A stretch of DNA of 42,720 bases, taken from NCBI GenBank assembly GCA_039588295.1, contig JBDHAB010000025.1, positions 1 to 42,720 on the forward strand, given 5' to 3'. Source of the DNA: Gemmatimonadota bacterium (GTDB taxonomy: Bacteria; Gemmatimonadota; Gemmatimonadetes; Gemmatimonadales; GWC2-71-9). The position numbers were made by a program, and so were the translations under genes. Positions 2-13,261 of the stretch are shown here, piece by piece. How positions within the stretch are numbered: position 1 is the first letter of the stretch; each line of letters opens with the position of its first letter. The notes beneath the pieces were generated by a model. It was given only the letters and a program-made list of their open reading frames with translations. It had not been told where the DNA came from and searched no databases.

Positions 2-1581
2 GCGAACGAGCAGCTGTTCTACACCCGTCGCGTCGGCCGCGCGCCGCAGGGTGACGCGGATTCGCGCGGTGGCTACGCCGAGTCGATCGACCAGACCACG
101 ATCCTGGGAGCCGCAAAGCTATCCGGGAAGACGTCCAACGGCTGGACGGTCGGCTTCCTCACCGCGCTCGCCGCCGAGGAGGAGGCAGACGTCGTGGACG
201 TGAACGGCGACCCGTTCGTGGACACCGTCGAGCCCCGCACCATGTACTTCGTCGGTCGCGTGGGTCGAGACTTTCGCGAGGGCCTCACCCAGGTGAGCCT
301 GTTCGGGACGGCGGTCGACCGCTCGCTGCCCGACCAGCTCGATTGGCTTCGGAGTTCGGCGTACTCGCTGGGAGCGCGGTTTGGGCATCGGTTCCACAAC
401 GACACCTGGTCGATCAGCGGCTGGGTCTCGGGGAGTCACGTACGGGGTTCCGAGACAGCTATCGAGGAGACACAGCTCTCCTCGGCGCGGTACTATCAGC
501 GTCCCGACAACGACTACGTCACATTCGATCCGACACAGACCTCGCTCAACGGATATGCCGGCCAACTGGTCGTGAACCACCAGGCTACGAGGTGAACGAC
601 GCCGGATTCCAACGTGAGGCGGACCGCACGATCCAGTTCGCCTGGATGGGCCTCAGGTGGTTCCAGCCTGGGAAGGTGTTCCGCCGGTTCGGTTTGAACT
701 TCAATCAGAACACCGTGTGGAGCTATGGGTGGGACCGGTTGGGCGCTGGCGGCAACGTGAACGCGAACTGGCAGTTTCTGAACTACTGGAGCGGCTATTT
801 GGGCATCTCGCGCAACATGGGCGGCCTGTCCACCGGTGCCCTGCGCGGCGGACCGGCATTCCGCAGACCGGGCCTATACAGCTCGTGGGGTGGCTTCAAC
901 AGCGACAGCCGCAAGCCGTTGAGCGTGGGACTGAACGGGTCGTGGTGGCTGCAGCCCGAGAGCGACTCCTGGGGATTCAACATCGGACCCAGGGTCTCGT
1001 GGCGCGCGGCGGCGAACATGGATTTCATGTTTGCGCCCCGAATGTTCCAGCAGTTCGACAGCTGGCAGTACTTCGACCAGGTAGACGCGTTCGGCGAGAC
1101 CCACTATCTGTTCAACGAAATCCGGCAGACCACGGCGGCGATGACGTTTCGTGGGAACGTCACGTTCACACCGACCCTTTCGCTGCAGATGTACGCGGAG
1201 CCTTTCGTTTCGACCGTTGACTACGAAGGGTTCCGGCAGGTCGCCGATCCCCAGGGCGAGACCTTCGCCGACCGGTTCGACGACTTCGGACCCGACCGGC
1301 TCATCGATGATGCCGGCGAGCTCGCAATCGATTTCGACAGGGACGGGACGCCCGACTACGATATCGGAAACCCCGACTTCACGTTCCTCTCGTTCCGGTC
1401 CAACGTCGTACTGCGCTGGGAGTACAACCTGGGCTCGACGCTCTTCGTCGTGTGGCAGCATGGACGCTCGGGTGACAACAGTCGTTCCGACTTCCAATTC
1501 GGCCAGGGCATCAAGGACCTGTTCGATCTCGACTCGCGCAACACGTTCGTCGTCAAGATGAACTACTGGTTCAGCCTGTAG
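2..1581 (+). pseudogene. DUF5916-family outer-membrane/secreted protein, 5'-truncated by the window edge, with an apparent frameshifting deletion near 578
   Basis: Frame 2 from the window start reads ANEQLFYTRRVGRAPQG...TILGAAKLSGKT (LFYxRRxG, typical of DUF5916) and stops at 595. Frame 1 resumes with PGYEVNDAGFQREAD and ends FRSNVVLRWEY...FVVKMNYWFSL, a beta-barrel-like C-terminus. Confidence 0.7.
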
Positions 1582-1690: not shown

Positions 1691-2263
1691 GTGCTGGACG
1701 CCATCGCGCAAGTCATCGAACAGTCCGGGGTGCTCATGTACTTCTTGGCCCCGCTGTTCATGGTCGTCGTCGCGATTCTCCCGATCCCGGCAGAGATCCC
1801 GGCGATGCTGAACGGCATGGTGTTCGGACCAGTGGCGGGAACCGCCATCACCTGGTCCGGGGCCGTGGTCGGAGCGCTGATCAGCTTCGAGCTCGCCCGT
1901 CGGTTCGGCAGACCGCTCGCGGAGCGGTTCGCGGCCAAGCACAGACTCGCACAGGCCGATCGTGTCGTGCTCTCGGTCGGATGGCCCGGGCTCTTGGCTC
2001 TCCGATTCGTGCCCACCATCGCATTCACCCTCGTCAACTGGGCGGCAGGGCTCACGGCGATACGCCGGTGGACCTTCGCCTGGACGACCGCCCTGGGGAT
2101 CATCCCCGGCGCTGTGCTCTTCACTGTCTCAGGAAGCGGACTGAGCGCCCTCTACCGTCGGGCGCCCGCCCTGGCCGTTGCCGGAGCCATCGTGGCCGTG
2201 GTGGTGGTCGCGTGGTCCGCCAGGCGCTATCGCCGGAAGAGCGCCGACAGCATACCAGCCTGA
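1691..2263 (+). CDS. TVP38/TMEM64 (VTT/DedA, SNARE-associated) membrane protein
   Basis: Contains LPIPAE...GMVFGPVAG...SFELARRFGR and LRFVPTIAFTLVNWAAGLT...FAWTTALGIIPG; hydrophobic throughout. Confidence 0.9.
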   Translation: MLDAIAQVIEQSGVLMYFLAPLFMVVVAILPIPAEIPAMLNGMVFGPVAGTAITWSGAVVGALISFELARRFGRPLAERFAAKHRLAQADRVVLSVGWPGLLALRFVPTIAFTLVNWAAGLTAIRRWTFAWTTALGIIPGAVLFTVSGSGLSALYRRAPALAVAGAIVAVVVVAWSARRYRRKSADSIPA

Positions 2264-2373: not shown

Positions 2374-4851
2374 ATGATCACGCTCGAGCACCGCACGCCG
2401 CTCCACGTGCCCGACCTCCATTTCTTCGAGGACCACGGCATCTCATACGCGGTCGACCACGCTGCCCCCAACTGGATCGCAACCGACGCCAGCGGCCGAA
2501 CGCTCCTCGATAGCATTGTCGAGTACGGAGCGCCTCCGACCTTTGGCAACCTCGTCGCCACGTACGCCGCAACGCACGGCCTCGAAGCGGGAAAGGCCTG
2601 GGTGCACGTCCACGATTTCCTGACGGCACTGAACCGGGCGGGAATGGTGTCGGACCGACCAATCACGGCCGATCCCTATCCTGGCAGGGCGCAGCTGGTA
2701 CAGCCCGAGGGACTCCGCGAGTTGTGGATCCAGGTCAACAACGCCTGCAACCTGACCTGCGTACACTGCCTGGTGTCCTCCGGACCGGGGAAAGAGGCAG
2801 GCCTGCCTCCGGAGCAGCTCAAGCAGCTGGTGACGCGGGCCGCGCATCTCGGGCTCGAGCGCCTCTTCCTCACCGGCGGCGAGCCGTTCGTACGCAAGGA
2901 TATCTTCGACCTCATTCGCCACGCCACCGACAAGCACGGCCTCGAGGTCATCGTTCTCACCAACGCCACCGTGTTCCAGGGATCGATCCGAGATAACCTC
3001 GCGACACTCGACCGCGAGGCCGTGCGATTCCAGGTTTCCATTGACGGCGCGCGCCGCGCCACCAACGACCGCATTCGCGGTGCGGGGACATTCGACAAGG
3101 CGCGCGCGGGCGCGCAGCTGCTGACCGAACTCGGGTTCGACCTCTCGCTCTCCACCGTGGTCGCCGCGGACAATCTCTGCGAGCTACCGGAACTGCCGAC
3201 CCTCGCCCAATCGGTGGGGGCGCGCAGTCACCACCTCATGTGGGCGCATCGTCGAGGACGTGCGGCGGCAAGCCGCAACGGGTTCTTCCCAGAGGTACCC
3301 GCACTGCTCGCGGGACTGCGCGACGCGGTCGCCGCCGCGGAAGTGGCCGGAGTGGAACTCGACAATCTCGAAAGCGTCAAGCGACGGGTGAACGGCGTGC
3401 CCGGCGTGAAGTACGACTTGGGCAACGGGGGTTGGGACTCCTTGGGCCTGTACGTAGACGGCAAGGCCTACCCCACGGCCGCGCTGGTGAACGAGCCGCG
3501 ACTACTGTGCGGTGATGCCACCCGCCAGGATCTCGCGGAGATTCTCACATCCTCGGCAGTCGTTCGGCAACTGCGGGAGGCAACCGTCGCCCGCAAGCCG
3601 TCGATGGCCAACGACCCGTTTCGCTTCCTCACCGGCGGCGGTGATTGGGAACACGCATTCTGGGCCAGCGGCGATCCGCTGGGCGACGATCCGTATTACC
3701 CGATCACCGCACATCTCGTGCGCCACGTGATGACCACACTGGGACGCGAGAAGCTCGCTCGTCGCAACACACGCTCCGGGTACGACGCGCCGCGCGTACT
3801 CCACGCGATGGGCCAGGGGGCGATCGCCTGCGGGACGGCGGACGGCGCCGCCGCCGAACGGCCCGTGCTCACGCTGCACTCGAACTGCGTGCTCTCGTTC
3901 GACGTCGACAAGCCGCGCGCCAAGATGCGCGAGTTCTACGGGCAGGCCGCCGAACAGCCGCAGGCCGAGCTTTGCTGCCCGACCAGGTACAACGATTCGG
4001 CCGTCGGGCACATCCCTCAGGAGGTGCTCGACCGCTTCTACGGCTGCGGCTCGCCGATGAGCAGCGCCAATATTACTGAAGGCGAGACGGTGGTAGATCT
4101 GGGGAGCGGGGCGGGCATTGACGTCTTCATCGCCGCCAAGCTGGTCGGACCGTCGGGCCGGGCCATCGGGATCGACATGACCGACCGCATGCTCGAGGTC
4201 GCCCGCGAGAACCAACCGAAGGTCGCCGCGGCGTTGGGCTATGACGTCGTCGAGTTCCGCAAGGGGTTCCTCGAGGACATTCCCGTCGAGAGCCGGTCGG
4301 TCAATCTCGTGACGTCGAACTGCGTGGTGAACCTCTCACCCGACAAGCCGCGCGTGTTCGAGGAAATCTGGCGGGTGCTCGAGAACCACGGTCGCATCGT
4401 CATCTCCGACATCGTCAGCGAGTGGGAGGTCCCGCCGCATCTCAAGGTCAACCCGCAGCTGTGGGGCGAATGCCTCGTGGGAGCGCTCACACAGGACGAG
4501 TTCCTCGCTCAGCTCGAGCAGGCCGGGTTCTACGGGCTGACGACCCTGACCCGCACCTATTGGAAGGAGGTCGAGGGGCACGCCTTCTTCTCGCTTACCA
4601 TCGAGGGATACAAGTACGAGAAAGCCGACGGATGCGTGTATCGAGGACACCGCGCCGTGTACCTCGGTCCGGGGAAAGCGATCGCGGACGAGGAAGGCCA
4701 CCTGTTTCCCCGGAACGAACCCTATGAGGTCTGTACGGACACGGTGGAGAAGCTGCAGCGCACGCCGTACCGGGAGATGTTCGTGATCCTGGAGCCTGGG
4801 GAGAATGCAGCAAGCTACGCGTGCTGCGAGCGCGACGGCGAATGTTGCTGA
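2374..4851 (+). CDS. Fusion of PqqD/RRE-like, radical SAM, degenerate SPASM and ArsM/AS3MT-like SAM-dependent methyltransferase domains
   Basis: CNLTCVHC (2746-2769), LTGGEP, LTNAT and QVSIDG mark the radical SAM core. The C-terminal half has [41 protein letters not shown] and the AS3MT-type tail GHRAVYLGP...DEEGHLF...VCTDT, ending [10 protein letters not shown]. Confidence 0.85.
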
Positions 4852-5735
4852 GGGCTCCGCGTGAGCCCTAAGTAGATCGCGCCCAGGGTGAGGACGGCGC
4901 CACCAGCTTGCACCACGGTGGTGGGCCGCCCGAACAGCAGGAGGTCCCACACGAAGGCAAGCGTCGGCTGCAAGAGCAGCGTCAAGCCAGCCCGCGAGGC
5001 GTCCACCTGCGGCAGCGCCGTCGCAATGAGCACCCACCCCGCCACCTGGGGCACCAGGGCGTAGGCCACCAGGATCCAAAAGGTGGACCAGTCCGGAATC
5101 CGGAAGCTTTCACCCTCGAGTCGTACGGTCACGGCGAGCAACCCGGCCGCGATGAGCGAGAGGATCGCCATCGTAGCGATCGGATCTGCCTTGCCCGCGC
5201 CCGCCTGCGCACGCCGGAGGCTCAGCAGATAGGACGCGTAGCACAGGGCCGTGAGCAAGCCAAACCCCACGCCAACGCGATACGCGGCATCCAGCGCGTT
5301 CCAGTCGATCCCGAACACGAGAAACAGCCCCACCATGGCGATCGGCACGGCAACGCCCAGGCGCCACGTCATGCGTTCCCCCAAGAGGAGGATGCCAAAG
5401 CCTGCGAGGAAGAACACTTGAAAATTGGCCAGAATCGTGGCCAAGCCCGGGCCAATGAGCAGGATGCTCCGGTGCCACACAGCCAGATCCAGCGCCAGGA
5501 ACGCCCCGGCCACGGCACTCATGATTAGGTGGCGCCGACCCGCGCTCCAGCGCCCTCGTCGTGCGATCACGACGGCCCCCAGTACGAGGCCGCCGAACAA
5601 CAGTCGGTAGAACCCCGCCGGCGTTGGCCCCACCCGAGCGATGTTCACCAACACGGGCGCGAAGCTGATGAGCACCGCCCCCGCGGTCAGTCGGAGCAGC
5701 GGACCTCGCGCGGTCCGGAAGGCACGACCGATCAT
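4815..5735 (-). CDS. DMT/EamA family transporter
   Basis: About 10 TM segments in two EamA-like repeats (GLATILANFQVFF; LLLQPTLAFVW). Its 3' end overlaps the radical SAM gene by 37 bp. Confidence 0.9.
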   Translation of the reverse strand: MIGRAFRTARGPLLRLTAGAVLISFAPVLVNIARVGPTPAGFYRLLFGGLVLGAVVIARRGRWSAGRRHLIMSAVAGAFLALDLAVWHRSILLIGPGLATILANFQVFFLAGFGILLLGERMTWRLGVAVPIAMVGLFLVFGIDWNALDAAYRVGVGFGLLTALCYASYLLSLRRAQAGAGKADPIATMAILSLIAAGLLAVTVRLEGESFRIPDWSTFWILVAYALVPQVAGWVLIATALPQVDASRAGLTLLLQPTLAFVWDLLLFGRPTTVVQAGGAVLTLGAIYLGLTRSPQQHSPSRSQHA

Positions 5736-5859: not shown

Positions 5860-8346
5860 ATGAACCGTCTCACGTCAGCCGCGATCGTGTTACTGGGCGC
5901 CGCCGGCATCAGCGCCTGCGCTACCGGGCGGGCACAGACCGCGCCCTCACCACAGCGGGGCGCCCAAGAGTCACGCGACGACACCAAGGAAAAGATCAAG
6001 CCGTACAAGGAAGTGATTACGGATGAGGCCGTGTCGGATTCCGGCATGTTCCTGATCCATCGTATCGATGAGAAGCTCTTTTACGAGATCCCGCACAACA
6101 TGTTCGATCGCGAGATGCTCGTCGTATCGCGCAGGGCCCGGACGGCGACGAACATCGGATACGGGGGCGAGAAGAACAACACGCAGACGGTGCGCTGGCA
6201 GCGACACAACAAGAAGGTGTTGCTGCGCAGCGTTTCCTACACCAACGTGGCCGCGGATTCACTGCCGATCTACGAAGCGGTGCGCAACGCCAACTTCGAG
6301 CCGATCGTTCACGCGTTCGACATCGCCGCGTTCGCCATCGATTCGGCAACATCGGATACCACGGCGATCGTCATCGAGGCCACCGACCTGTTCACGTCGG
6401 ACGTTCCCGTCTTCGGGCTCAATCGCTTCACCCGCGAGCGGTACAAGATCCGCACGCTCGACAAGGATCGATCGTTCATCAATTGGGCAAAGAGCTTTCC
6501 GCAGAACATCGAGGTTCGGGTCGTGATGACGTACAACGCCCAGGAACCGCCCTCCAACTCCACGACCGGCACGATCTCGCTGGAGATGAATCACTCGATG
6601 ATTCTCCTGCCGGAGCGGCCGATGATGGCACGAATCGCCGACGCGCGGGTTGGGTTCTTTGCGGTACAACAGACGGATTACGGTCGGGCCAATCAGAAGG
6701 TCAAGACTCGCCGCTACGTCGCCCGCTGGCGCTTGGAGCCCAAGGACACGGCGGCGTTCCGCCGCGGTGAGCTGGTCGAGCCGATCAAGCCGATCGTGTA
6801 CTACATCGATCCGGCGACACCGGAGAAGTGGCGCCCTTACCTGAAGCAGGGCGTGGAGGACTGGAACGTTGCATTCGCCGAGGCCGGCTTCAAGAACGCG
6901 ATCATCGCCAAAGACCCGCCCTCGGCAGAAGAGGATCCGGAGTTCAGCCCGGAGGACGTGCGCTATTCCGTCATCCGCTGGTTTCCGTCATCCGTGCAGA
7001 ACGCGTACGGGCCACACACCAGCGACCCTCGAACCGGCGAGATCCTCGAGAGCGATATCGGCTGGTTCCACAACGTGCTGAACCTGCTCCGCAACTGGTA
7101 TTTCATCCAGACTGCGGCAGCCAACCCGGCCGCGCGACGGATTGAGTTCGACGACCAGGTCATGGGAGAGCTCGTTCGCTTCGTCGCGGCGCATGAGGTG
7201 GGTCACACCCTCGGACTGCCGCACAACATGAAGGCGAGCTCCGCGTATCCCGTGGATTCCCTCCGGTCCGCGAGCTTCACCTGCACGATGGGAACCGCAC
7301 CATCCATCATGGATTACGCTCGCTTCAACTACGTGGCCCAGCCGGAAGACGAAGGTGTCTGCTTCCTGCCGGGCATCGGACCCTATGACAAACACTCGAT
7401 CCGGTGGGGCTACCGACCGATTGTGGACGCCACGTCCCCCGATCAAGAGCGAGCGACGCTGGATGCGTGGATTCGTGAGCGGTACGGCGATCCGACCTAC
7501 CACTACGGTGGCGGGAGCGGCACGGATCCGACGTCACAGACCGAGGCCTTGGGGGACGACGCCATGCAGGCGAGCGAGTATGGTATCGCCAACCTGAAGC
7601 GCATTCTCCCCAACCTGATCGCGTGGTCCTATCAAGAGATGGAGGGCTACGACGAGCTGCAGGAGCTGTACAGCCAAGCGCTGGGGCAGTGGAATCGGTA
7701 CATGGGACACGTCGCGACAAACATCGGCGGCGTGGTGCAGACCCCGAAGACGTACGGACAGGACGGGCCGGTGTACCAGTTCGTGTCCGAAGATGTTCAG
7801 CGGCGCGCCATGCAGTTCTTCACCGAGCAGGCGTTCACACCACCCACCTGGATGATCGACGAGGATATTCTCCGTCGCATCGAAAACGTCGGGACCGTCG
7901 ACCGCATGCGGGGTATTCAGGTCTCCGTCGTGAACCGCATCCTCGATCCCGGCCGGATGCAGCGGCTGATCGAGGCCGAGGCGCGAAACGGCAGCGACGC
8001 GTACACCCTCGGTGAGATGCTGGGTGACCTGCACGGCGCCGTATGGAGCGAGCTGCGCAGGGGAGGCTCCATCGACGTGTATCGCCGTAACCTGCAGCGG
8101 GGCTACCTCGAGCGGATGGAATGGCTCATGAACGAGGAGCCCGGACCCGTGCCGGCCTTCGCCCGGGCTTTCGTCACCAACGTGGACGTGCCGCAGTCCG
8201 ATATTCGCCCGTTCGTGCGCGGCGAACTGGAGACGCTGAAACGGCAGATCCGCGCGGCACTGGGTCGGAATCCCGATCGCACCACGCGACTCCACCTGCA
8301 GGACGCAATCGTGCGGATCGACGCGATTCTGGACCCGAAAGACTAG
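5860..8346 (+). CDS. Zinc-dependent metalloprotease lipoprotein (DUF5118/DUF5117/DUF4953 architecture)
   Basis: Lipobox ISAC, metzincin motif HEVGHTLGLPHN, Met-turn SIMDY and KPIVYYIDPATP. Confidence 0.92.
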   Translation: MNRLTSAAIVLLGAAGISACATGRAQTAPSPQRGAQESRDDTKEKIKPYKEVITDEAVSDSGMFLIHRIDEKLFYEIPHNMFDREMLVVSRRARTATNIGYGGEKNNTQTVRWQRHNKKVLLRSVSYTNVAADSLPIYEAVRNANFEPIVHAFDIAAFAIDSATSDTTAIVIEATDLFTSDVPVFGLNRFTRERYKIRTLDKDRSFINWAKSFPQNIEVRVVMTYNAQEPPSNSTTGTISLEMNHSMILLPERPMMARIADARVGFFAVQQTDYGRANQKVKTRRYVARWRLEPKDTAAFRRGELVEPIKPIVYYIDPATPEKWRPYLKQGVEDWNVAFAEAGFKNAIIAKDPPSAEEDPEFSPEDVRYSVIRWFPSSVQNAYGPHTSDPRTGEILESDIGWFHNVLNLLRNWYFIQTAAANPAARRIEFDDQVMGELVRFVAAHEVGHTLGLPHNMKASSAYPVDSLRSASFTCTMGTAPSIMDYARFNYVAQPEDEGVCFLPGIGPYDKHSIRWGYRPIVDATSPDQERATLDAWIRERYGDPTYHYGGGSGTDPTSQTEALGDDAMQASEYGIANLKRILPNLIAWSYQEMEGYDELQELYSQALGQWNRYMGHVATNIGGVVQTPKTYGQDGPVYQFVSEDVQRRAMQFFTEQAFTPPTWMIDEDILRRIENVGTVDRMRGIQVSVVNRILDPGRMQRLIEAEARNGSDAYTLGEMLGDLHGAVWSELRRGGSIDVYRRNLQRGYLERMEWLMNEEPGPVPAFARAFVTNVDVPQSDIRPFVRGELETLKRQIRAALGRNPDRTTRLHLQDAIVRIDAILDPKD

Positions 8347-8390: not shown

Positions 8391-10391
8391 TTACGGAGCG
8401 CGGACGGCCCGCTCCACCTCGACTCGCGCCTCATTGTAGCACGCACCGCCACCGACTTCACTCACGGTCGGAGGACACACCGCGGTCGCCGTCTGACCGT
8501 TCATGGACGCGGCGCGCCACGCCCCCTTGGGTATCACGACGACCCCGCGACGGACCCCTACAGCCACACGTGCCACGCAAGCCACCGCTCCTAGATCGTT
8601 GAACACACGCACCGGATCGCCGTTCGCGATCGAGCGGTCCGCCGCGTCGGCCGGGTGGATCTCCACATACAACTCGGGCAGCGCGTATTCACCCATCGAG
8701 CTGTTCACGGTGCGGGAGGTCGCGGGACTCACCAGCGCGAGCGGGTAGCGTTCGTCCGTCAGCGAACGATACGCGTACGGCTCCGGTCCAAGCACACTCG
8801 GCACCAGGTGGATCTTCCCGTCCGCCGTGAGCGGATGCACGGTCTCAAACATCACCGGTGTCGTCCCGGGAAAGTCGTACTCCAACCACATCGAACCATG
8901 ACTCGGATCCGCACCGTCCATCGACAACGCACGGAGCGCCGCCTGCTCTGCCTCCACCGGATCCCACTGGAAAGCCTCGTCTGCGAATCCCATGGCCCGG
9001 CCCAGGAGGGCGAATACTTCGAGGTTTGATTTCGACTGACCCAGCGGCTCGACGACGGGGCGCACCGGGCCAACGCCGTAGCTGCCGTACGAGACCCGCA
9101 GGTCGATGTGCTCGAGGAACGTGGTGGCGGGAAGCACGATATCGGCGTACGGAGCCGTGTCGGTCATCACCTGATCGAACACGACCGTGAATAGATCGTC
9201 GCGGGCGAGCCCGCGTAGCACCGCGTTCTGATCGGGCACGGTCGCCGCCGGATTACAGTTGTACACGACCAGCGCTTTGACCGGCGGCTCGACCCCGTCG
9301 GTCAGCACCTCGCCGAGCTTGGTCATGTTGACGACCCGACTCGTCCATTCCAAGGCACCGAGTGCCGCTCTGCGATCCAGTCGCGCCGCTCCATTATTGC
9401 TCAGCGTGTACCCGCCTCCACGAACACCAAACTTGCCCAGGAGTGCAGGCATCGCGAGGATGGCGGCGACGGCGTGGCCCCCGTTGCGATTCCGTTCCAC
9501 ACCCCAGCCGCATCGCATGACCGCCGGCGTGGACTCAGCGAACACCCGGGCCACACGCTCGATGTCCCCGGCCTCCACGTCGGCCTCGCGCGCCGCGCGT
9601 TCGAGTGGCCAGGCCGCGGCCCGCTCGAGGAGCGGCTCGAGATCGACCGCGTGGCGTTCGAGGAAGGACCGGTCCAAGGACCCCCAGTCGCGCCACAGGT
9701 TGATCATCGATAGCGCAACCGGCAGATCGGTTCCGGGAAGGACCGGGAGGTGCAGGTCCGCCTCGTTCGCGGAGAAGTTGCGCCGCGGGTCCACCACGGC
9801 AACGAACGCCCCTCGTTCCCGCGCGGCGCGAAGATAGGGAACGAGGTGGATGTTCGACGCCTTTGGGTTCGCTCCCCAGACGATGATGCACTTGGCATGG
9901 ACGTAGTCCTGGAAGGCCACACCCGGCATCTTGCCGTACATCCCCAGTGCGACCATGGTCGTGGGCACGGCGCACAGCGTCTTCACGAGCCTCGAGGCTC
10001 CGAGCCGGGCGAAGAACAGATCGTCCAGATAGCCGTCGGTCAGGACCCCGTTGGAACCTCCGTAGTGATAGGGCAGGATGGCCTCTCCGCCCCACCGCTC
10101 CCGAATCTCGCGGAACCGGCTGACGATCTCACCAATGGCGTCGTCCCACGTGATCGGTGCAAAGTCTCCGGCGCCTTTGCGACCGACGCGGCGCAACGGG
10201 GAGAGCAATCGCAACTCGCCGTGCACCCGTCGGTCGAACCCGCGCACTTTGGAGCAGATGAAGCCGTTCGTGACGGGATTGAGTGAGGTACCCGCGATCT
10301 CGGTGATCCGTCCGTCGCTGACGCTCACTTCGAGTGAGCAGGCGTCGGGGCAGTCGAGCGGACAAGTGGTGTGGAGACGGGTGGGAGGCAT
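8391..10391 (-). CDS. Molybdopterin (bis-MGD) oxidoreductase catalytic subunit, YoaE-like, cytoplasmic
   Basis: N-terminal CPLDCPDAC...GFICSK Fe-S motif, ITWDDAI, WGANP, MTDTAPYADIVLPATTFLE and a C-terminal IHPADAA dinucleotide-binding domain. No Tat signal. Confidence 0.9.
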   Translation of the reverse strand: MPPTRLHTTCPLDCPDACSLEVSVSDGRITEIAGTSLNPVTNGFICSKVRGFDRRVHGELRLLSPLRRVGRKGAGDFAPITWDDAIGEIVSRFREIRERWGGEAILPYHYGGSNGVLTDGYLDDLFFARLGASRLVKTLCAVPTTMVALGMYGKMPGVAFQDYVHAKCIIVWGANPKASNIHLVPYLRAARERGAFVAVVDPRRNFSANEADLHLPVLPGTDLPVALSMINLWRDWGSLDRSFLERHAVDLEPLLERAAAWPLERAAREADVEAGDIERVARVFAESTPAVMRCGWGVERNRNGGHAVAAILAMPALLGKFGVRGGGYTLSNNGAARLDRRAALGALEWTSRVVNMTKLGEVLTDGVEPPVKALVVYNCNPAATVPDQNAVLRGLARDDLFTVVFDQVMTDTAPYADIVLPATTFLEHIDLRVSYGSYGVGPVRPVVEPLGQSKSNLEVFALLGRAMGFADEAFQWDPVEAEQAALRALSMDGADPSHGSMWLEYDFPGTTPVMFETVHPLTADGKIHLVPSVLGPEPYAYRSLTDERYPLALVSPATSRTVNSSMGEYALPELYVEIHPADAADRSIANGDPVRVFNDLGAVACVARVAVGVRRGVVVIPKGAWRAASMNGQTATAVCPPTVSEVGGGACYNEARVEVERAVRAP

Positions 10392-10500
10392 GCGGCAAGA
10401 TAGCGTTGGGGGTCCAGCAGGAGCTACACGGCACCCGCACTCCGCTGTCCGTTACGCGAACCCACAGGCGCCGGACAGCGGAGGAGGATGCGACTCGAGA

Positions 10501-10899
10501 TTATGGTTCCTGCTCTACCCTGCTTCCAGAAAGCTCCCCCGAATCGAACCCCAGCGCCCACGTGCCCGTGTACGTGTTGCCGACGAACGTCAAGGTTATG
10601 ACGAGATCCTCACCGCCCGCGTCGCCGAAGATGGTCATGACCTGACCCTCGACGGATACAGAGTAGATCTCGACGGGAGGAGGACCCGTGGTCGGCTCGA
10701 CCATGCCCGTGTACGAGCCGGGTTCGCCCCGAATCACGATCCGCCCATTGATCATCTGGCCTTCGAAGGATGCCTCGAAGTTGTAGACACCCACGGGATC
10801 CAACACCCGGGGCGCTGGAGCCTCGGCACCTCCGCGAGCCGAACAGGCACTCCCCACAAGGACCGCGCCGAGCACGAGAACGGATAGCGGTTTCGTCAC
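10501..10899 (-). CDS. Hypothetical lipoprotein (small, beta-strand-rich)
   Basis: GTG start after a GAGGAG RBS, hydrophobic signal with lipobox GSAC, and an acidic mature region. Confidence 0.75.
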   Translation of the reverse strand: MTKPLSVLVLGAVLVGSACSARGGAEAPAPRVLDPVGVYNFEASFEGQMINGRIVIRGEPGSYTGMVEPTTGPPPVEIYSVSVEGQVMTIFGDAGGEDLVITLTFVGNTYTGTWALGFDSGELSGSRVEQEP

Positions 10900-11035
10900 A
10901 ACGTCTCCTCGTCGACTGTGGTGGTCAGCTTATCATCCGAGACGGGTGTACGGAAGAGAAGCTGTCGCGCGCTCGACCCGACAACCACCCGGCTCGAGCG
11001 TGCGCACACCTCCGTCTCATCGCACAGATCTCGAC

Positions 11036-11704
11036 CTAGCGGTTCCGGACCTTGCTGCGAACGTGTAGCCGGACCTCCTCCCGGACCTCAGTCCGCAGAC
11101 GATGGATCTGGTCTGAGAACTCGGTGCAGGCAGTGCCCGCCGAGCCGGACGCCACGGTCACGCTGGTCGCTTCACCGCTCCCCGCGACGACCGCCACCTC
11201 CGCAACCCCTGGCATATGCTCGCACGGCAGGTCCTCCTTTGCCAGGAAGAGGCCCAGTTCCTGATCGGCCCCTACCACCCCGACCGATCCAAACCGGACG
11301 AGCCCGCTCGTGTCCGAAATACACTGCATCGCGTGTTTGACGCCCCCGACGGGACCCCTACGGTCGAACGCATCCGGATCCAAATGGATGCTGCACTCTG
11401 AAAGTTTCTCGAGATCGGCCTCGTCCACGGACGCCAGCTCGATCCTGATACTGTCAACCGTGCCCGGTTTGTGGCGCTCGATGACCACTGCGTCGAGCTT
11501 CCCCACCTTGTCGCCCTCGATGTAGGCGGGCACGAATCCCAAATGCATGGTGACGGGGTTGGGGCTGTGCTCGAGGCTATCGGCCCAGGCTTCTATCTGG
11601 GCCTTCAGTTTCCCCGCGTTACGGACGCCCCACACCACCCCAAGCCCGACCACCACCACGAGCGGGGCTCCCACAGCCACCACGAGTCTCCGAAAGGTCG
11701 ACAT
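11036..11704 (-). CDS. Hypothetical protein with an N-terminal membrane anchor
   Basis: ATG after GAGGA, one N-terminal TM segment and a soluble domain with 4 Cys. Confidence 0.65.
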   Translation of the reverse strand: MSTFRRLVVAVGAPLVVVVGLGVVWGVRNAGKLKAQIEAWADSLEHSPNPVTMHLGFVPAYIEGDKVGKLDAVVIERHKPGTVDSIRIELASVDEADLEKLSECSIHLDPDAFDRRGPVGGVKHAMQCISDTSGLVRFGSVGVVGADQELGLFLAKEDLPCEHMPGVAEVAVVAGSGEATSVTVASGSAGTACTEFSDQIHRLRTEVREEVRLHVRSKVRNR

Positions 11705-11894
11705 AGGCCTATCCTCGAGTATCCAGAGGGTTCACACCCTAATACGACCCCGGTCCACGGGTGGTTTCAAGTCCGGATCGGAGACCTGCAGGCCCCTCGC
11801 CGACGCCGACGCGCTCCCCCTTGCGGTTCCCGGAGCGGCGCGCTTCCCTTCCAGCGGAATCCAAGGGTTCCGACCTTTGCCGCGGAGCTATGCC

Positions 11895-12557
11895 GTGTCG
11901 TTCTGCCAGGAGCAGCTCACTCGCCTCAAACCCCTGTGGGATCTGATGCTCGACCACCGGTTCCTGCGCGAGACTCGGGACGGAACGATTTCGGATGAGC
12001 GTTTTGCGGTGTGGATGCGTCAGGACTACCTGTTCGTCGAGGCCGCCATTCCGTTCATCGCGGCGCTCATCGCCAAGGCCCCACAGCATCACTGGGAGCC
12101 ACTCACCGGGGTGATCGGCGCGCTCGAGAAAGAGCTCACGCTATTCGAGGAGCGGGCAGCCGCGGTGGGGGTGACCCTCCGGGGTGCGCCGCCATCCTTC
12201 ACCAATCACGCCTACATCCAGTTCCTCCTGGCAGCCGCGTACCGCGCGTCCTACGCCGAGGGCTATACCGTGCTCTACGCTGCGGAAAAGGCCTACTTCG
12301 ACTCGTGGAGCGTGGTCCAGGCAGGCATCGACCGAGACTCGAAGTGGTACCCGTTCGTGGAGAACTGGGCCGGCGAGGCGTTTGCCCAGTACGTGGCCTA
12401 TCTCGAAGGAGAGCTCGATCGACTGGCCAACGAGGCCGGCCCCGGGGAACGAGGGCGCATGGCCGAGCTGTTCGAGTTCACCACCAAGTACGAGATTGCC
12501 TTCTGGGAGATGGCGGCAACGGGAGAGGGATGGCCGGGAATGAGGGCGAAGGGATAA
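11895..12557 (+). CDS. tenA: TenA family protein, Cys-less TenA_E-like type
   Basis: GTG start after GGAG. Contains HRFL...DGTI...WMRQDYLFV and YEIAFWEMA; LYAAEKAY stands where TenA_C has LLPC. Confidence 0.85.
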   Translation: MSFCQEQLTRLKPLWDLMLDHRFLRETRDGTISDERFAVWMRQDYLFVEAAIPFIAALIAKAPQHHWEPLTGVIGALEKELTLFEERAAAVGVTLRGAPPSFTNHAYIQFLLAAAYRASYAEGYTVLYAAEKAYFDSWSVVQAGIDRDSKWYPFVENWAGEAFAQYVAYLEGELDRLANEAGPGERGRMAELFEFTTKYEIAFWEMAATGEGWPGMRAKG

Positions 12558-12580
12558 GGGATAAGGGAGAAGGGAGAGGG
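12536..12580 (+). repeat. GGGNNAA heptamer tandem repeat with G-quadruplex potential
   Basis: GGGAATGA-GGGCGAA-GGGATAA-GGGATAA-GGGAGAA-GGGAGA-GGG, spanning the first tenA stop codon. Confidence 0.8.
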
Positions 12581-12595
12581 CTGCGACGGCTGCCT

Positions 12596-13261
12596 ATGAC
12601 GCTCACCGATCAGTGTTTCAACGCGGCGAAGCCCATCTGGGATGAGCAGCTACGACACAAGTTCGTGCAGCAACTCGGTGACGGCTCCTTGGCCGTCGAG
12701 CGGTTCAGGCGTTGGGTGCTGCAAGACTACCTCTACCTCAAGGAATTCGCGCGCATCTTTGCGTGGGCCGTGGCGAAGGCGGATCAGCTGGACTCGATGG
12801 GCTGGTACGCCAAGGTCCTCGATCTCACGCTAAACACCGAGATGGCGCTGCACCGGACGTACGCGGAGCGCTTCGGCGTTTCGCCGGAGGAGCTCGAGGC
12901 GCAGCCGATGTGGCCGACGACTCGAGCGTACACGGATTTCCTCGTGCGCACGTCCGCCGACGGCGACATGGCGGATCTCCTCGCGGCGCTGTTACCCTGC
13001 GCGTGGGGCTATGTCTACATCGCGCAGGACCTGGCGGGGCAAGACCCACCGGAAGATCAGCGATACGCCGATTGGATTGCCCAATACGCTTCCCAGGAGT
13101 TCGCCGACGCGGCGGAGTGGCTCAAGGCCGAGCTCAATCGGGTTGCTGCCGGCGCAACCGAAGAGAAGCGAAGCCGACTCATCGAGCTGTTCGTGTTATC
13201 CAGCCGCTACGAGTGGAGTTTCTGGGAGATGTGTTGGCACGGAGAGGCATGGCGTCCCTGA
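12596..13261 (+). CDS. tenA: Thiaminase II / aminopyrimidine aminohydrolase (TenA_C)
   Basis: HKFVQQLGDGSL, QDYLYL, catalytic LLPCAWGY, YADWIAQY and SSRYEWSFWEM. Confidence 0.92.
   Translation: MTLTDQCFNAAKPIWDEQLRHKFVQQLGDGSLAVERFRRWVLQDYLYLKEFARIFAWAVAKADQLDSMGWYAKVLDLTLNTEMALHRTYAERFGVSPEELEAQPMWPTTRAYTDFLVRTSADGDMADLLAALLPCAWGYVYIAQDLAGQDPPEDQRYADWIAQYASQEFADAAEWLKAELNRVAAGATEEKRSRLIELFVLSSRYEWSFWEMCWHGEAWRP

Follow-up and report, generated by a model that had tools for sequence, protein, structure and literature searches.

A SPASM domain that lacks all seven cluster-binding cysteines was confirmed in a fusion of a radical SAM enzyme with an ArsM-type arsenite methyltransferase, encoded by a single gene in a 42,720-nucleotide stretch of DNA from a Gemmatimonadota bacterium (GCA_039588295.1, contig JBDHAB010000025.1), the whole of which is referred to here as the window. 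Pfam and NCBIfam matches combined with a predicted model give the domain order, from the N- to the C-terminus, as an RRE-like domain, a radical SAM core, the SPASM relic, a Cys pair, and ArsM (table 1). The function of this radical SAM–ArsM fusion we infer from its context: on balance, the relic probably keeps its fold without auxiliary clusters and the enzyme probably attaches to methylated arsenite a carbon group taken from SAM, in the manner of ArsS.

Table 1. The fusion gene, its domains and motif positions, and the adjoining genes (positions in the window).
Feature	Positions	Strand	Evidence
VTT (TVP38/DedA-type) membrane protein gene, 110-nt gap upstream of the fusion gene	1691..2263	+	PF09335
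Whole fusion gene, 825 aa plus stop	2374..4851	+	ORF translation, Pfam and NCBIfam domains, full-length model
RRE/PqqD-like N-terminal domain, residues 1-100	2374..2673	+	Model and superposition
Radical SAM core, residues 105-340	2686..3393	+	PF04055
SPASM-homologous domain without cluster ligands, residues 345-445 (predicted fold)	3406..3708	+	Shared columns, model, superposition, conservation
CX9-15GX4C equivalent, G350...G363...T368 (AuxI ligand positions 1 and 2)	3415..3486	+	Alignment
C379, sole conserved Cys remaining in the SPASM relic	3508..3510	+	Homolog columns
CX2CX5CX3C equivalent: M411, D414, T420 (AuxII positions), D424 (AuxI position)	3604..3645	+	Alignment
Y442, in the place of the seventh SPASM Cys (final AuxII ligand)	3697..3699	+	PqqE alignment and homolog columns
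Segment with the Cys pair, from C486 (AIACG, in a flexible loop) to C505 (HSNCV)	3829..3888	+	Homolog columns
ArsM-type As(III) SAM methyltransferase, C-terminal domain and CC...CC tail, residues 515-825	3916..4848	+	NF008823, CmArsM 4fr0, Foldseek
EamA/DMT transporter gene, convergent	4815..5735	-	PF00892

The seven-Cys SPASM motif, given as CX9-15GX4C-gap-CX2CX5CX3C-gap-C in a section of PMC6231123, is occupied in the window protein by G350, T368, M411, D414, T420, D424, and Y442, none of the seven being cysteine. The motif spacing and its conserved glycine (G363) are retained, with G350 in the place of the first cysteine and T368 in that of the second. Both SPASM-like strings singled out in the initial annotation lie where it put them, at residues 348–371 (nt 3415–3486) and 411–424 (nt 3604–3645), and thus inside the range of 3415..3660 that it assigned to the domain; the domain itself (approximately 3406–3708) and Y442 (nt 3697–3699) extend past 3660. 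To compare columns, we aligned 150 cluster representatives with hmmsearch, 71 of which were fully covered for the all-seven count. P0145, P0148, P0149, and P0155 have cysteine in the columns of G350, T368, M411, D414, T420, and D424, which upholds the earlier reading of M, D, T, and D as standing at the four Cys positions of Cx2Cx5Cx3C, and all seven cysteines, the Y442 column included, occur in 22 of the 71 representatives. Because relatives hold cysteine in the same columns, the mapping onto the seven-Cys motif is, as judged from the alignment, no chance look-alike. HMMER likewise aligns residues 119–445 with residues 32–354 of PqqE (6c8v; E 4.2e-14). The Pfam SPASM model (PF13186) scores 15.3 bits over residues 353–401 against a cut-off of 21.5 (E 0.026), by itself only suggestive, and is passed by the relative P0128 with 29.1 bits over the homologous stretch. 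The stretch from the radical SAM triad to residue 485 holds only two further cysteines, C379 and the nonconserved C269.

The AlphaFold model (pLDDT 94.2, pTM 0.93; full-length model, pLDDT 89.8, pTM 0.88) has a pLDDT above 93 throughout the SPASM region. This predicted model superposes on solved SPASM folds C-terminal to the radical SAM barrel, namely those of CteB (5wgg_A; Z 30.5, rmsd 4.2 Å, 407 residues, model residues 13–460), anSME (4k38_B; Z 28.6, rmsd 3.1 Å, 329 residues, model residues 113–462 against chain residues 2–369), and PqqE (Z 22.9, model residues 110–443), the last two being the comparisons by which the initial annotation proposed to check its view that the fold is kept while the ligands are gone. 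That view agrees with the model, and the relic is predicted to keep the SPASM fold of CteB, anSME, and PqqE and to bind no auxiliary cluster. Viperin, BlsE, and DesII are also among the structural matches of the model (Z 19–23), and their C-terminal extensions are presumably cluster-free. A literature search found no precedent for a SPASM or twitch domain without cysteines.

The Cys-less state is shared by the whole family. All seven cysteines are absent from each of the 120 close homologs among the matches listed, which have G350 (120/120), threonine (98) or serine (22) at position 368, D414 (120/120), T420 (119/120), D424 (120/120), and Y442 (119/120), with a varying, hydrophobic residue at position 411. 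A lineage-specific decay, which the initial annotation expected to reveal itself through close homologs that keep the cysteines, is not what these columns show: the cysteines are missing throughout the family and their replacements are conserved, D414, T420, D424, and Y442 being near-invariant, and we therefore take the Cys-less state to be old and selected, with no recent decay. The relic matches the radical SAM core in conservation, the mean frequency of the top residue being 0.796 in the former and 0.765 in the latter. The same data bear on whether the radical SAM half might be a decayed passenger, with only the ArsM half working and the Cys-less SPASM domain as the sign of a dead module. 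Such a state would account for the loss of every auxiliary ligand and for the subthreshold Pfam SPASM score, but we consider it highly improbable: the core matches PF04055 with 81.2 bits (cut-off 29.5) and bears the features of the radical SAM superfamily, its CX3CX2C triad (C125, C129, C132; nt 2746–2769) is kept in 120/120 close homologs among the matches listed, its GGEP motif (G168-G169-E170-P171, residues 168–171) is invariant at G168, G169, and P171 across 80 diverse sequences, core and relic are strongly constrained across two Phyla at 66–78% identity, and the residues that stand in for the cysteines do not vary either.

Some relatives hold all seven cysteines, while others have just the four ligands of AuxII or just the three of AuxI; among the 71 fully covered representatives, the one-cluster states comprise two AuxI-only and five AuxII-only sequences. 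The tree separates 41 Cys-rich rows from 58 rows without AuxI ligands (SH-aLRT 98), and the AuxII-only P0128, P0132, and P0139 branch off close to the base on the Cys-less side, pointing to a stepwise loss of the clusters in this family.

The thiols that remain are strongly conserved. Among the matches listed, C379 is cysteine in 119 of the 120 close homologs and C486 and C505 are both present in all 120, the pair also being found at a level of at least 90% in a 58-sequence alignment; the thiol-bearing segment 446–514 shows the highest conservation within the protein (mean top-residue frequency 0.903). The two linker cysteines had been noticed before and are indeed present, at nt 3829–3831 (C486) and nt 3886–3888 (C505), outside the range given for the domain. 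The accompanying suggestion that they hand arsenic from one domain to the other fits their invariance but not their distribution, as the pair also occurs in relatives without ArsM (the TusA fusions P0151 and P0156 and the stand-alone P0149, P0159, P0144, and P0168). Since these relatives carry it too, the pair belongs to the radical SAM module and did not originate as a hand-over device for the fusion; binding of a thiophilic atom by the linker cysteines is possible. C379, C486, and C505 could also coordinate a new, noncanonical auxiliary Fe-S cluster with one open iron, in replacement of the two that were lost. The conservation of the three thiols and of segment 446–514 would be in keeping with such a site, and within the superfamily CteB and MoaA provide examples of auxiliary sites in which three cysteines leave one iron open (as described in part of PMC6231123). 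However, much of the Cys-less clade at large has a residue other than cysteine at position 379 (A, T, L, G, M, among others), and residues 485–490, the C486 loop, are modeled at a pLDDT below 50, making the new cluster unlikely.

The C-terminal domain carries the four conserved cysteines with which ArsM and AS3MT proteins bind As(III), together with their fold for SAM binding. NF008823 scores 229.6 bits, below but near its cut-off of 263 and over profile positions 39–230 of 272 only; CmArsM (4fr0) matches residues 543–805 (E 8e-40), and the best Foldseek matches are ArsM and AS3MT structures. C534/C535, C558, C650, and C700, which we take to be the equivalents of C44/C72/C174/C224 of CmArsM, are present in 120/120 close homologs among the matches listed. 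In P0145 and P0155, a SPASM domain with all seven cysteines is likewise fused to an ArsM with all ArsM cysteines (NF008823, 255 and 242 bits). Given that ArsM fusions also occur with a complete set of SPASM cysteines, working on arsenic does not in itself require the clusters to be lost, and the avoidance of poisoning by arsenicals, put forward in the initial annotation as a possible driver, is not supported. The relative P0158 is additionally fused to a TIGR04283-like glycosyltransferase (134.8 bits). We found no description of a radical SAM–ArsM fusion in a literature search, and the accessible portion of PMC13188914 makes no mention of one.

To place the fusion in its genomic context, ORFs of at least 90 aa were compared across 81 sources; the crude longest-ORF caller, applied to DNA of 65% GC, recovered the target in 61 of the 81 sources, and the neighborhood counts are thus lower bounds. 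The VTT gene (cluster K8, 8/81 sources) lies directly upstream of the fusion gene in seven related loci and two genes upstream in the eighth, and the EamA gene (cluster K9, 8/81 sources including the window) adjoins it in related loci. The recurrent neighbors of the fusion family are TIGR04283 (226.8 bits), a TIGR04282-like protein, a MerA-like oxidoreductase, and the VTT protein, the same company as is kept by ArsS and ArsM. No glycosyltransferase adjoins the fusion gene in the window itself; the TIGR04283/TIGR04282 pair of this genome (96% complete, with no ArsS over the cut-off) is encoded on another contig.

Fusion and ArsS were mutually exclusive in the genomes sampled. Of 201 Gemmatimonadota genomes, 16 encode the fusion, 18 encode ArsS, and none encodes both, with the reservation that these co-occurrence counts, as well as those of the second sample, include related genomes and are hence not independent; within the genus of the window, four genomes have the fusion and one has ArsS. 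TIGR04283 is present in 15 of the 16 fusion-bearing genomes, the fusion lying within 3.3 kb of it in 7/16, and ArsS lies within 1.1 kb of TIGR04283 in 8/18; 32 of the 62 TIGR04283-bearing Gemmatimonadota genomes have neither ArsS nor the fusion. In the second sample, 151 genomes from the class of G201 (the genome holding locus L037, labeled Thermoanaerobaculia), ArsS was found in 0/18 genomes with the 825-aa type compared with 42/151 overall, and also in two of the six genomes having just a distant paralog of approximately 1060–1180 aa; TIGR04283, encoded by 112/151 genomes, is too common here for its co-occurrence to be informative. As the fusion never occurs together with ArsS in the two samples and has arsenosugar-type neighbors, the fusion family likely replaces ArsS plus ArsM. 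The window protein is itself not a member of ArsS (TIGR04167, 70.6 bits against a cut-off of 300, over the core only), and its radical SAM module is of a different subfamily, SPASM-derived, with an RRE-like domain, and joined with the ArsM chemistry in a single polypeptide.

The other known radical SAM enzyme that works with ArsM on trivalent arsenic, as the fusion presumably does, is ArsL (NF040542). In an ArsL-like reaction, the 3-amino-3-carboxypropyl group of SAM would be transferred to As(III), the fused ArsM would methylate the product, and EamA would export an arsinothricin-like amino acid. The best specific model for the ArsM part is the arsinothricin ArsM NF040538 (198.8 bits with the C-terminal domain included, compared with 156.4 for the arsenosugar ArsM model, both below their cut-offs), the adjoining EamA gene is weakly similar to carriers of amino acids or amines, and the Cys-rich CC...CC tail is reminiscent of the RCCLKC tail that binds As(III) in ArsL, in which, according to part of the same preprint, the extra cysteines bind arsenite and not a cluster (bioRxiv 10.1101/2024.02.01.577332). 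Yet CC...CC is a different tail, NF040542 is not among the best 25 NCBIfam matches of the window protein, and a search of its own genome with this model gave weak matches on three other contigs (≤26.8 bits) and none to the fusion gene. The layout also differs from that of BgArsL, for which part of PMC8552651 places CX3CX2C at residues 194–201 of 428, and with genomic company of the arsenosugar type and a family that excludes ArsS, an ArsL-like activity is rather unlikely.

Another reading takes the protein as a peptide (RiPP-type) maturase, whose RRE-like domain would bind a precursor for modification by the radical SAM and methyltransferase domains, with or without arsenic. Its nearest structures are indeed RRE-bearing RiPP maturases (CteB, SkfB, SuiB, TigE, and ChlB), and the N-terminal domain is retained, with three strands followed by three helices in the model, superposing on CteB from residue 13 and on TigE from residue 2 (predicted model). 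Pfam PqqD is matched by canonical relatives (6 of the 37 scanned) but not by the window protein at E ≤ 1, although the RRE-like fold is present in its model, and conservation is lowest in the N-terminal domain (mean top-residue frequency 0.671). Furthermore, no conserved small neighbor gene was found among ORFs of at least 90 aa in the 81 sources, the ArsM arsenic-binding cysteines are all conserved in the close homologs listed, and the auxiliary clusters that such maturases need are lost, so that we hold peptide maturation to be quite improbable.

Under the favored ArsS-like reading, the fused ArsM domain would methylate As(III), and the radical SAM module would then make the C–As bond by radical addition, most likely by a 5'-deoxyadenosylation as in ArsS, yielding an arsenosugar precursor. 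ArsS adenosylates DMAs(III) and does not need an external reductant (part of PMC13598754). Because an adenosylation of this kind would be redox-neutral at the SAM cluster, the auxiliary clusters could have become dispensable. The SPASM relic may have stayed on as a wall of the active site or a lid over it, compatible with the substrate-binding lid suggested in the initial annotation, and the arsenical would be held by the conserved thiols C486 and C505, with C379 in the clade of the window. More tentatively, the fusion may represent a third, independently evolved class of C–As-forming radical SAM enzymes after ArsS and ArsL: A peptide-maturase chassis would have shed AuxI and then AuxII, the vacated cluster pocket together with C486/C505 (and C379) would have become the arsenic site, and one polypeptide, taking arsenite to an adenosyl-arsenical, would have taken the place of ArsS plus ArsM in many bacteria of soil and sediment.

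Auxiliary clusters are the defining feature of SPASM and twitch domains, and their role is a matter of continuing debate. In its predicted model, the fusion protein shares the three-part architecture and fold of CteB, SuiB, and TigE, which have an N-terminal RRE, and the SPASM radical SAM fold of anSME (4k36-39) and PqqE (6c8v), which have no RRE; its sequence homology with these enzymes extends to the motif columns. It keeps the glycine-rich turn G421–G423 and the motif glycine G363 of SPASM enzymes but none of their seven Cys ligands; no AuxI or AuxII is expected, and ArsM is fused. In the twitch-domain enzymes SkfB, BtrN, and MoaA, SPASM is shortened to one auxiliary cluster, and some relatives of the fusion protein likewise have the ligands of only one auxiliary cluster in this fold, whereas the fusion protein has lost both and yet is predicted to keep the full-length SPASM fold, its second half included.

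The family thus holds a natural series within one fold and fusion context, from seven cysteines through AuxI only and AuxII only to none, the end state of which has been maintained by selection; with this series one can examine how the scaffold works in the absence of clusters and which kinds of chemistry depend on them. The fusion is currently annotated only as a "methyltransferase domain-containing protein." If it is an analog of ArsS, this fusion would be the means by which many uncultured Gemmatimonadota and Acidobacteriota produce organoarsenicals, and surveys of arsenic cycling based on the arsS gene would miss these fusion-bearing producers.

The 825-aa fusion protein carries, behind its radical SAM core, a domain (residues 345–445) that the initial annotation had read as SPASM-like with every auxiliary-cluster cysteine replaced. 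The two strings behind this reading lie where it had placed them, at residues 348–371 (nt 3415–3486) and 411–424 (nt 3604–3645). A family profile search over 1.84 billion proteins gave 29,052 matches at E ≤ 0.001, of which 132 also passed E ≤ 1e-30; the 150 best cluster representatives from that search were aligned to the profile. The columns of G350, T368, M411, D414, T420, and D424 are occupied by cysteine in representatives such as P0145, P0148, P0149, and P0155, and the seventh position, Y442, was placed by a HMMER alignment to PqqE (6c8v; residues 119–445, E 4.2e-14). The spacing in the window protein (G350-X12-G363-X4-T368; M411-X2-D414-X5-T420-X3-D424; Y442) fits the SPASM motif CX9-15GX4C-gap-CX2CX5CX3C-gap-C, as stated in PMC6231123. 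Given this agreement of exact columns, PqqE alignment, and spacing, the mapping is correct and reflects homology, not chance; at the level of single residues, the SPASM equivalence is predicted from the aligned sequences. Besides the radical SAM triad (C125/C129/C132), the first 485 residues contain only the cysteines C269, which is not conserved, and C379.

An AlphaFold2 model of residues 1–520, built on 80 diverse sequences, reached a pLDDT of 94.2 and a pTM of 0.93, with blocks spanning residues 340–470 at 93 or above; the full-length model (pLDDT 89.8, pTM 0.88) is weak only at residues 485–490 and 815–825. The top Foldseek matches are SkfB, CteB, SuiB, anSME, PqqE, and ChlB. Using VIA-align, the best superpositions were with CteB (5wgg_A; Z 30.5, rmsd 4.2 Å over 407 residues, model 13–460 against chain 2–450) and anSME (4k38_B; Z 28.6, 3.1 Å over 329 residues, model 113–462 against chain 2–369), followed by ChlB (Z 27.9), SuiB (Z 26.8), and PqqE (Z 22.9, model 110–443). 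These superpositions of the predicted model span the whole SPASM part, and those with CteB and TigE also include the N-terminal RRE, so that the fold is predicted to be kept, as the initial annotation had proposed.

The window protein is encoded in a single open reading frame (see table). Pfam recognizes a radical SAM core (PF04055, residues 120–271, 81.2 bits) and a class I methyltransferase (PF13847, residues 568–718, 104.2 bits), and SPASM only below threshold (residues 353–401, 15.3 vs. 21.5 bits, E 0.026). No NCBIfam model passes its own cut-off, including the ArsS model TIGR04167 (70.6 bits vs. 300). The nearest models are, for the N-terminal half, those of SPASM-type enzymes (129.6 bits for the Rv1681 family, 120.2 bits for StsB over residues 112–407, and PqqE over residues 119–440) and, for the C-terminal half, those of arsenite methyltransferases (229.6 bits for NF008823 against a cut-off of 263), with 198.8 and 156.4 bits for the specific models of arsinothricin and arsenosugar ArsM. 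CmArsM (4fr0) matches residues 543–805 (E 8e-40), and the best fold matches for this half are ArsM and AS3MT structures. The ArsM in this half is complete.

Positions of the fusion gene and its neighbors in the window
Feature	Window position	Strand	Remark
DUF5916 gene	343–1581	+	flanking
VTT gene	1691–2263		neighbor of fusion gene
Fusion gene	2374–4851	+	single ORF, 825 aa, holding the Cys-less SPASM domain
EamA gene	4815–5735		neighbor of fusion gene
Met-zincin gene (DUF4953/DUF5117/DUF5118)	5860–8346	+	flanking
Molybdopterin oxidoreductase, N-terminal Fe4S4 domain	8391–10391	-	3.5 kb downstream of fusion gene

The initial annotation had proposed checking whether the replacements are conserved, and this was borne out. 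A word-indexed search returned 662 relatives, of which the 120 listed (818–845 aa, 69–78% identity, 99–100% query coverage) come from Gemmatimonadota and Acidobacteriota MAGs. In all 120 listed, the seven SPASM positions lack cysteine, whereas the radical SAM triad, the five ArsM cysteines, C486, and C505 are kept. The replacing residues are themselves conserved (D414 and D424 in 120, T420 and Y442 in 119), and C379 is a cysteine in 119. The SPASM-homologous domain equals the catalytic core in conservation (mean top-residue frequency 0.796 against 0.765), and residues 446–514 rank highest, at 0.903. Lineage-specific decay is not the cause of the cysteine loss. Most close relatives have extra noncanonical cysteines, at position 358 in 102 of the 120 listed (glycine in the window protein) and within segment 427–434 in 68; as these vary, no obligatory cluster site is located there. 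One orthologue in another genome (G289:C7:458578–461061) has one in-frame TAG within the match, which could reflect a sequencing error, a pseudogene, or recoding.

Among the 71 representatives that fully cover the region, the seven cysteines are all absent in 35 and all present in 22; only the AuxII set (411/414/420/442) is kept in 5 and only the AuxI set (350/368/424; P0226 and P0250) in 2, and the remaining 7 show other patterns. The partial states match the known ligand split between the two clusters. At the AuxI positions, the AuxII-only relatives (P0128, P0132, P0139, P0170, and P0246) carry S/S/D, a pattern opposite to that of a twitch domain. A 99-row tree was quickly inferred by maximum likelihood from 90 representatives (coverage of residues 105–465 of 85% or more) and 9 close homologues. 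It separates 41 Cys-rich rows from 58 without AuxI ligands (SH-aLRT 98) and puts P0128, P0132, and P0139 close to the base on the Cys-less side, at weakly supported forks (85–87). Because the cysteines are present in solved SPASM enzymes from outside the family, the loss is a derived state, and most simply AuxI was lost first and AuxII later.

Poisoning by arsenicals, which the initial annotation had offered as a possible driver, is neither needed nor supported: relatives with a full-Cys SPASM domain (e.g., P0145, P0155, P0157, P0183, P0190, and P0193) are also fused to ArsM-type domains with all ArsM cysteines kept (NF008823: 255.2 bits for P0145, 242.5 for P0155), so arsenic handling alone did not force cluster loss. 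According to PMC13598754, ArsS adds a 5'-deoxyadenosyl radical to DMAs(III) and the arsenic-centred radical returns an electron to the SAM cluster, so that no external reductant is needed. Such chemistry would require no auxiliary cluster, which would be a simple reason for the loss: once recruited to this chemistry, a SPASM enzyme could shed both clusters, the domain being kept as an active-site wall. We infer an ArsS-like purpose in arsenic chemistry for the enzyme. In ArsL, another radical SAM enzyme that handles arsenic, extra cysteines can bind arsenite, not iron (bioRxiv 10.1101/2024.02.01.577332); by analogy, the candidate arsenite-binding cysteines here are C486 and C505, joined in this clade by C379. 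Cysteines of the C486/C505 type also occur in relatives without ArsM (TusA fusions P0151 and P0156; stand-alone P0149, P0159, P0144, and P0168), which suggests that the pair belongs to the radical SAM module.

Genome distribution points to a probable DISPLACEMENT of ArsS: among 201 Gemmatimonadota genomes, 16 encode the fusion (including a copy truncated at a contig end and another of 1031 aa), 18 an ArsS above cut-off, and none both. Of the five genomes in the window's genus, four have the fusion and one has ArsS. The window's own genome (96% complete) has no ArsL and no ArsS above cut-off, the top match being the fusion gene itself (73 bits). It also encodes a stand-alone second ArsM-like gene (G000:C27:13153–13716, +; 266-aa frame, 47% identity to residues 539–729). 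TIGR04283, named as an "arsenosugar biosynthesis glycosyltransferase" family, is present in 15/16 fusion genomes against 62/201 overall, and lies within 3.3 kb of the fusion in 7/16 and within 1.1 kb of ArsS in 8/18. In a second sample, 151 genomes of the class of G201 (the genome of locus L037, titled Thermoanaerobaculia), ArsS occurs in 0/18 genomes with the 825–845-aa type against 42/151 overall; the sole overlaps are 2/6 genomes with only a distant paralogue of ~1060–1180 aa. Genomes with only a DUF5714-type relative can also have ArsS (the same 2/6). The distribution can be read as the fusion displacing ArsS, but related genomes are not independent samples, 32 of the 62 TIGR04283 genomes of the first sample have neither, and in the second sample TIGR04283 is so widespread (112/151) that it is uninformative. 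The genomes with neither belong mostly to families f6 and f7, where some open frames holding a TIGR04283 match are very long, reaching 2259 aa in G061. A single unpublished genome enters each of the counts (G157, G205), and none of the results depends on it.

Within the own genome, TIGR04283 (232.9 bits) and TIGR04282 (185.1 bits) adjoin on a different contig, followed ~1.5 kb further along by a MerA-like gene; this cluster (L097; G000:C2:15000–34000, about 8754–13066, -), which lies far from the fusion gene, holds these genes, the MerA-like one an FAD oxidoreductase, and two ORFs (274 and 342 aa) without family match. In a one-genome-per-species collection, relatives turned up in 207/232 candidate stretches, and 80 loci were retained. 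Neighbor counts over 81 sources, which are minimum values given the crude ORF calling used, gave DUF2064/TIGR04282-like genes in at least 18, MerA-like FAD oxidoreductases in at least 12, PHO4 phosphate transporters in at least 10, and VTT/TVP38, EamA, and TIGR04283 (226.8 bits) in at least 8 each. The met-zincin and DUF5916 genes (clusters K2 and K4) reappear next to the fusion at several loci in Gemmatimonadota (12/81 and 11/81 sources), probably as lineage synteny.

Of 37 scanned relatives, 9 have a C-terminal DUF5714 domain (~980–1080 aa: P0133, P0143, P0150, P0152, P0161, P0163, P0164, P0171, and P0186), that of P0152 resembling the metal-binding selenoprotein MbdU (143 bits), and one, P0158, has a GT2 domain matching TIGR04283 at 134.8 bits. 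In two (P0151 and P0156), the methyltransferase is replaced by the sulfur carrier TusA, joined to the RRE–radical SAM–SPASM–Cys-pair module, a hint at a general role of the module for thiophilic elements. In their sources, family members are labeled only as "methyltransferase domain-containing protein" or with generic radical SAM names, and a full-text literature search found no paper on a radical SAM–ArsM fusion of this kind. Rather than a new category, the fusion is likely a SPASM enzyme without its clusters and an analogue of ArsS.
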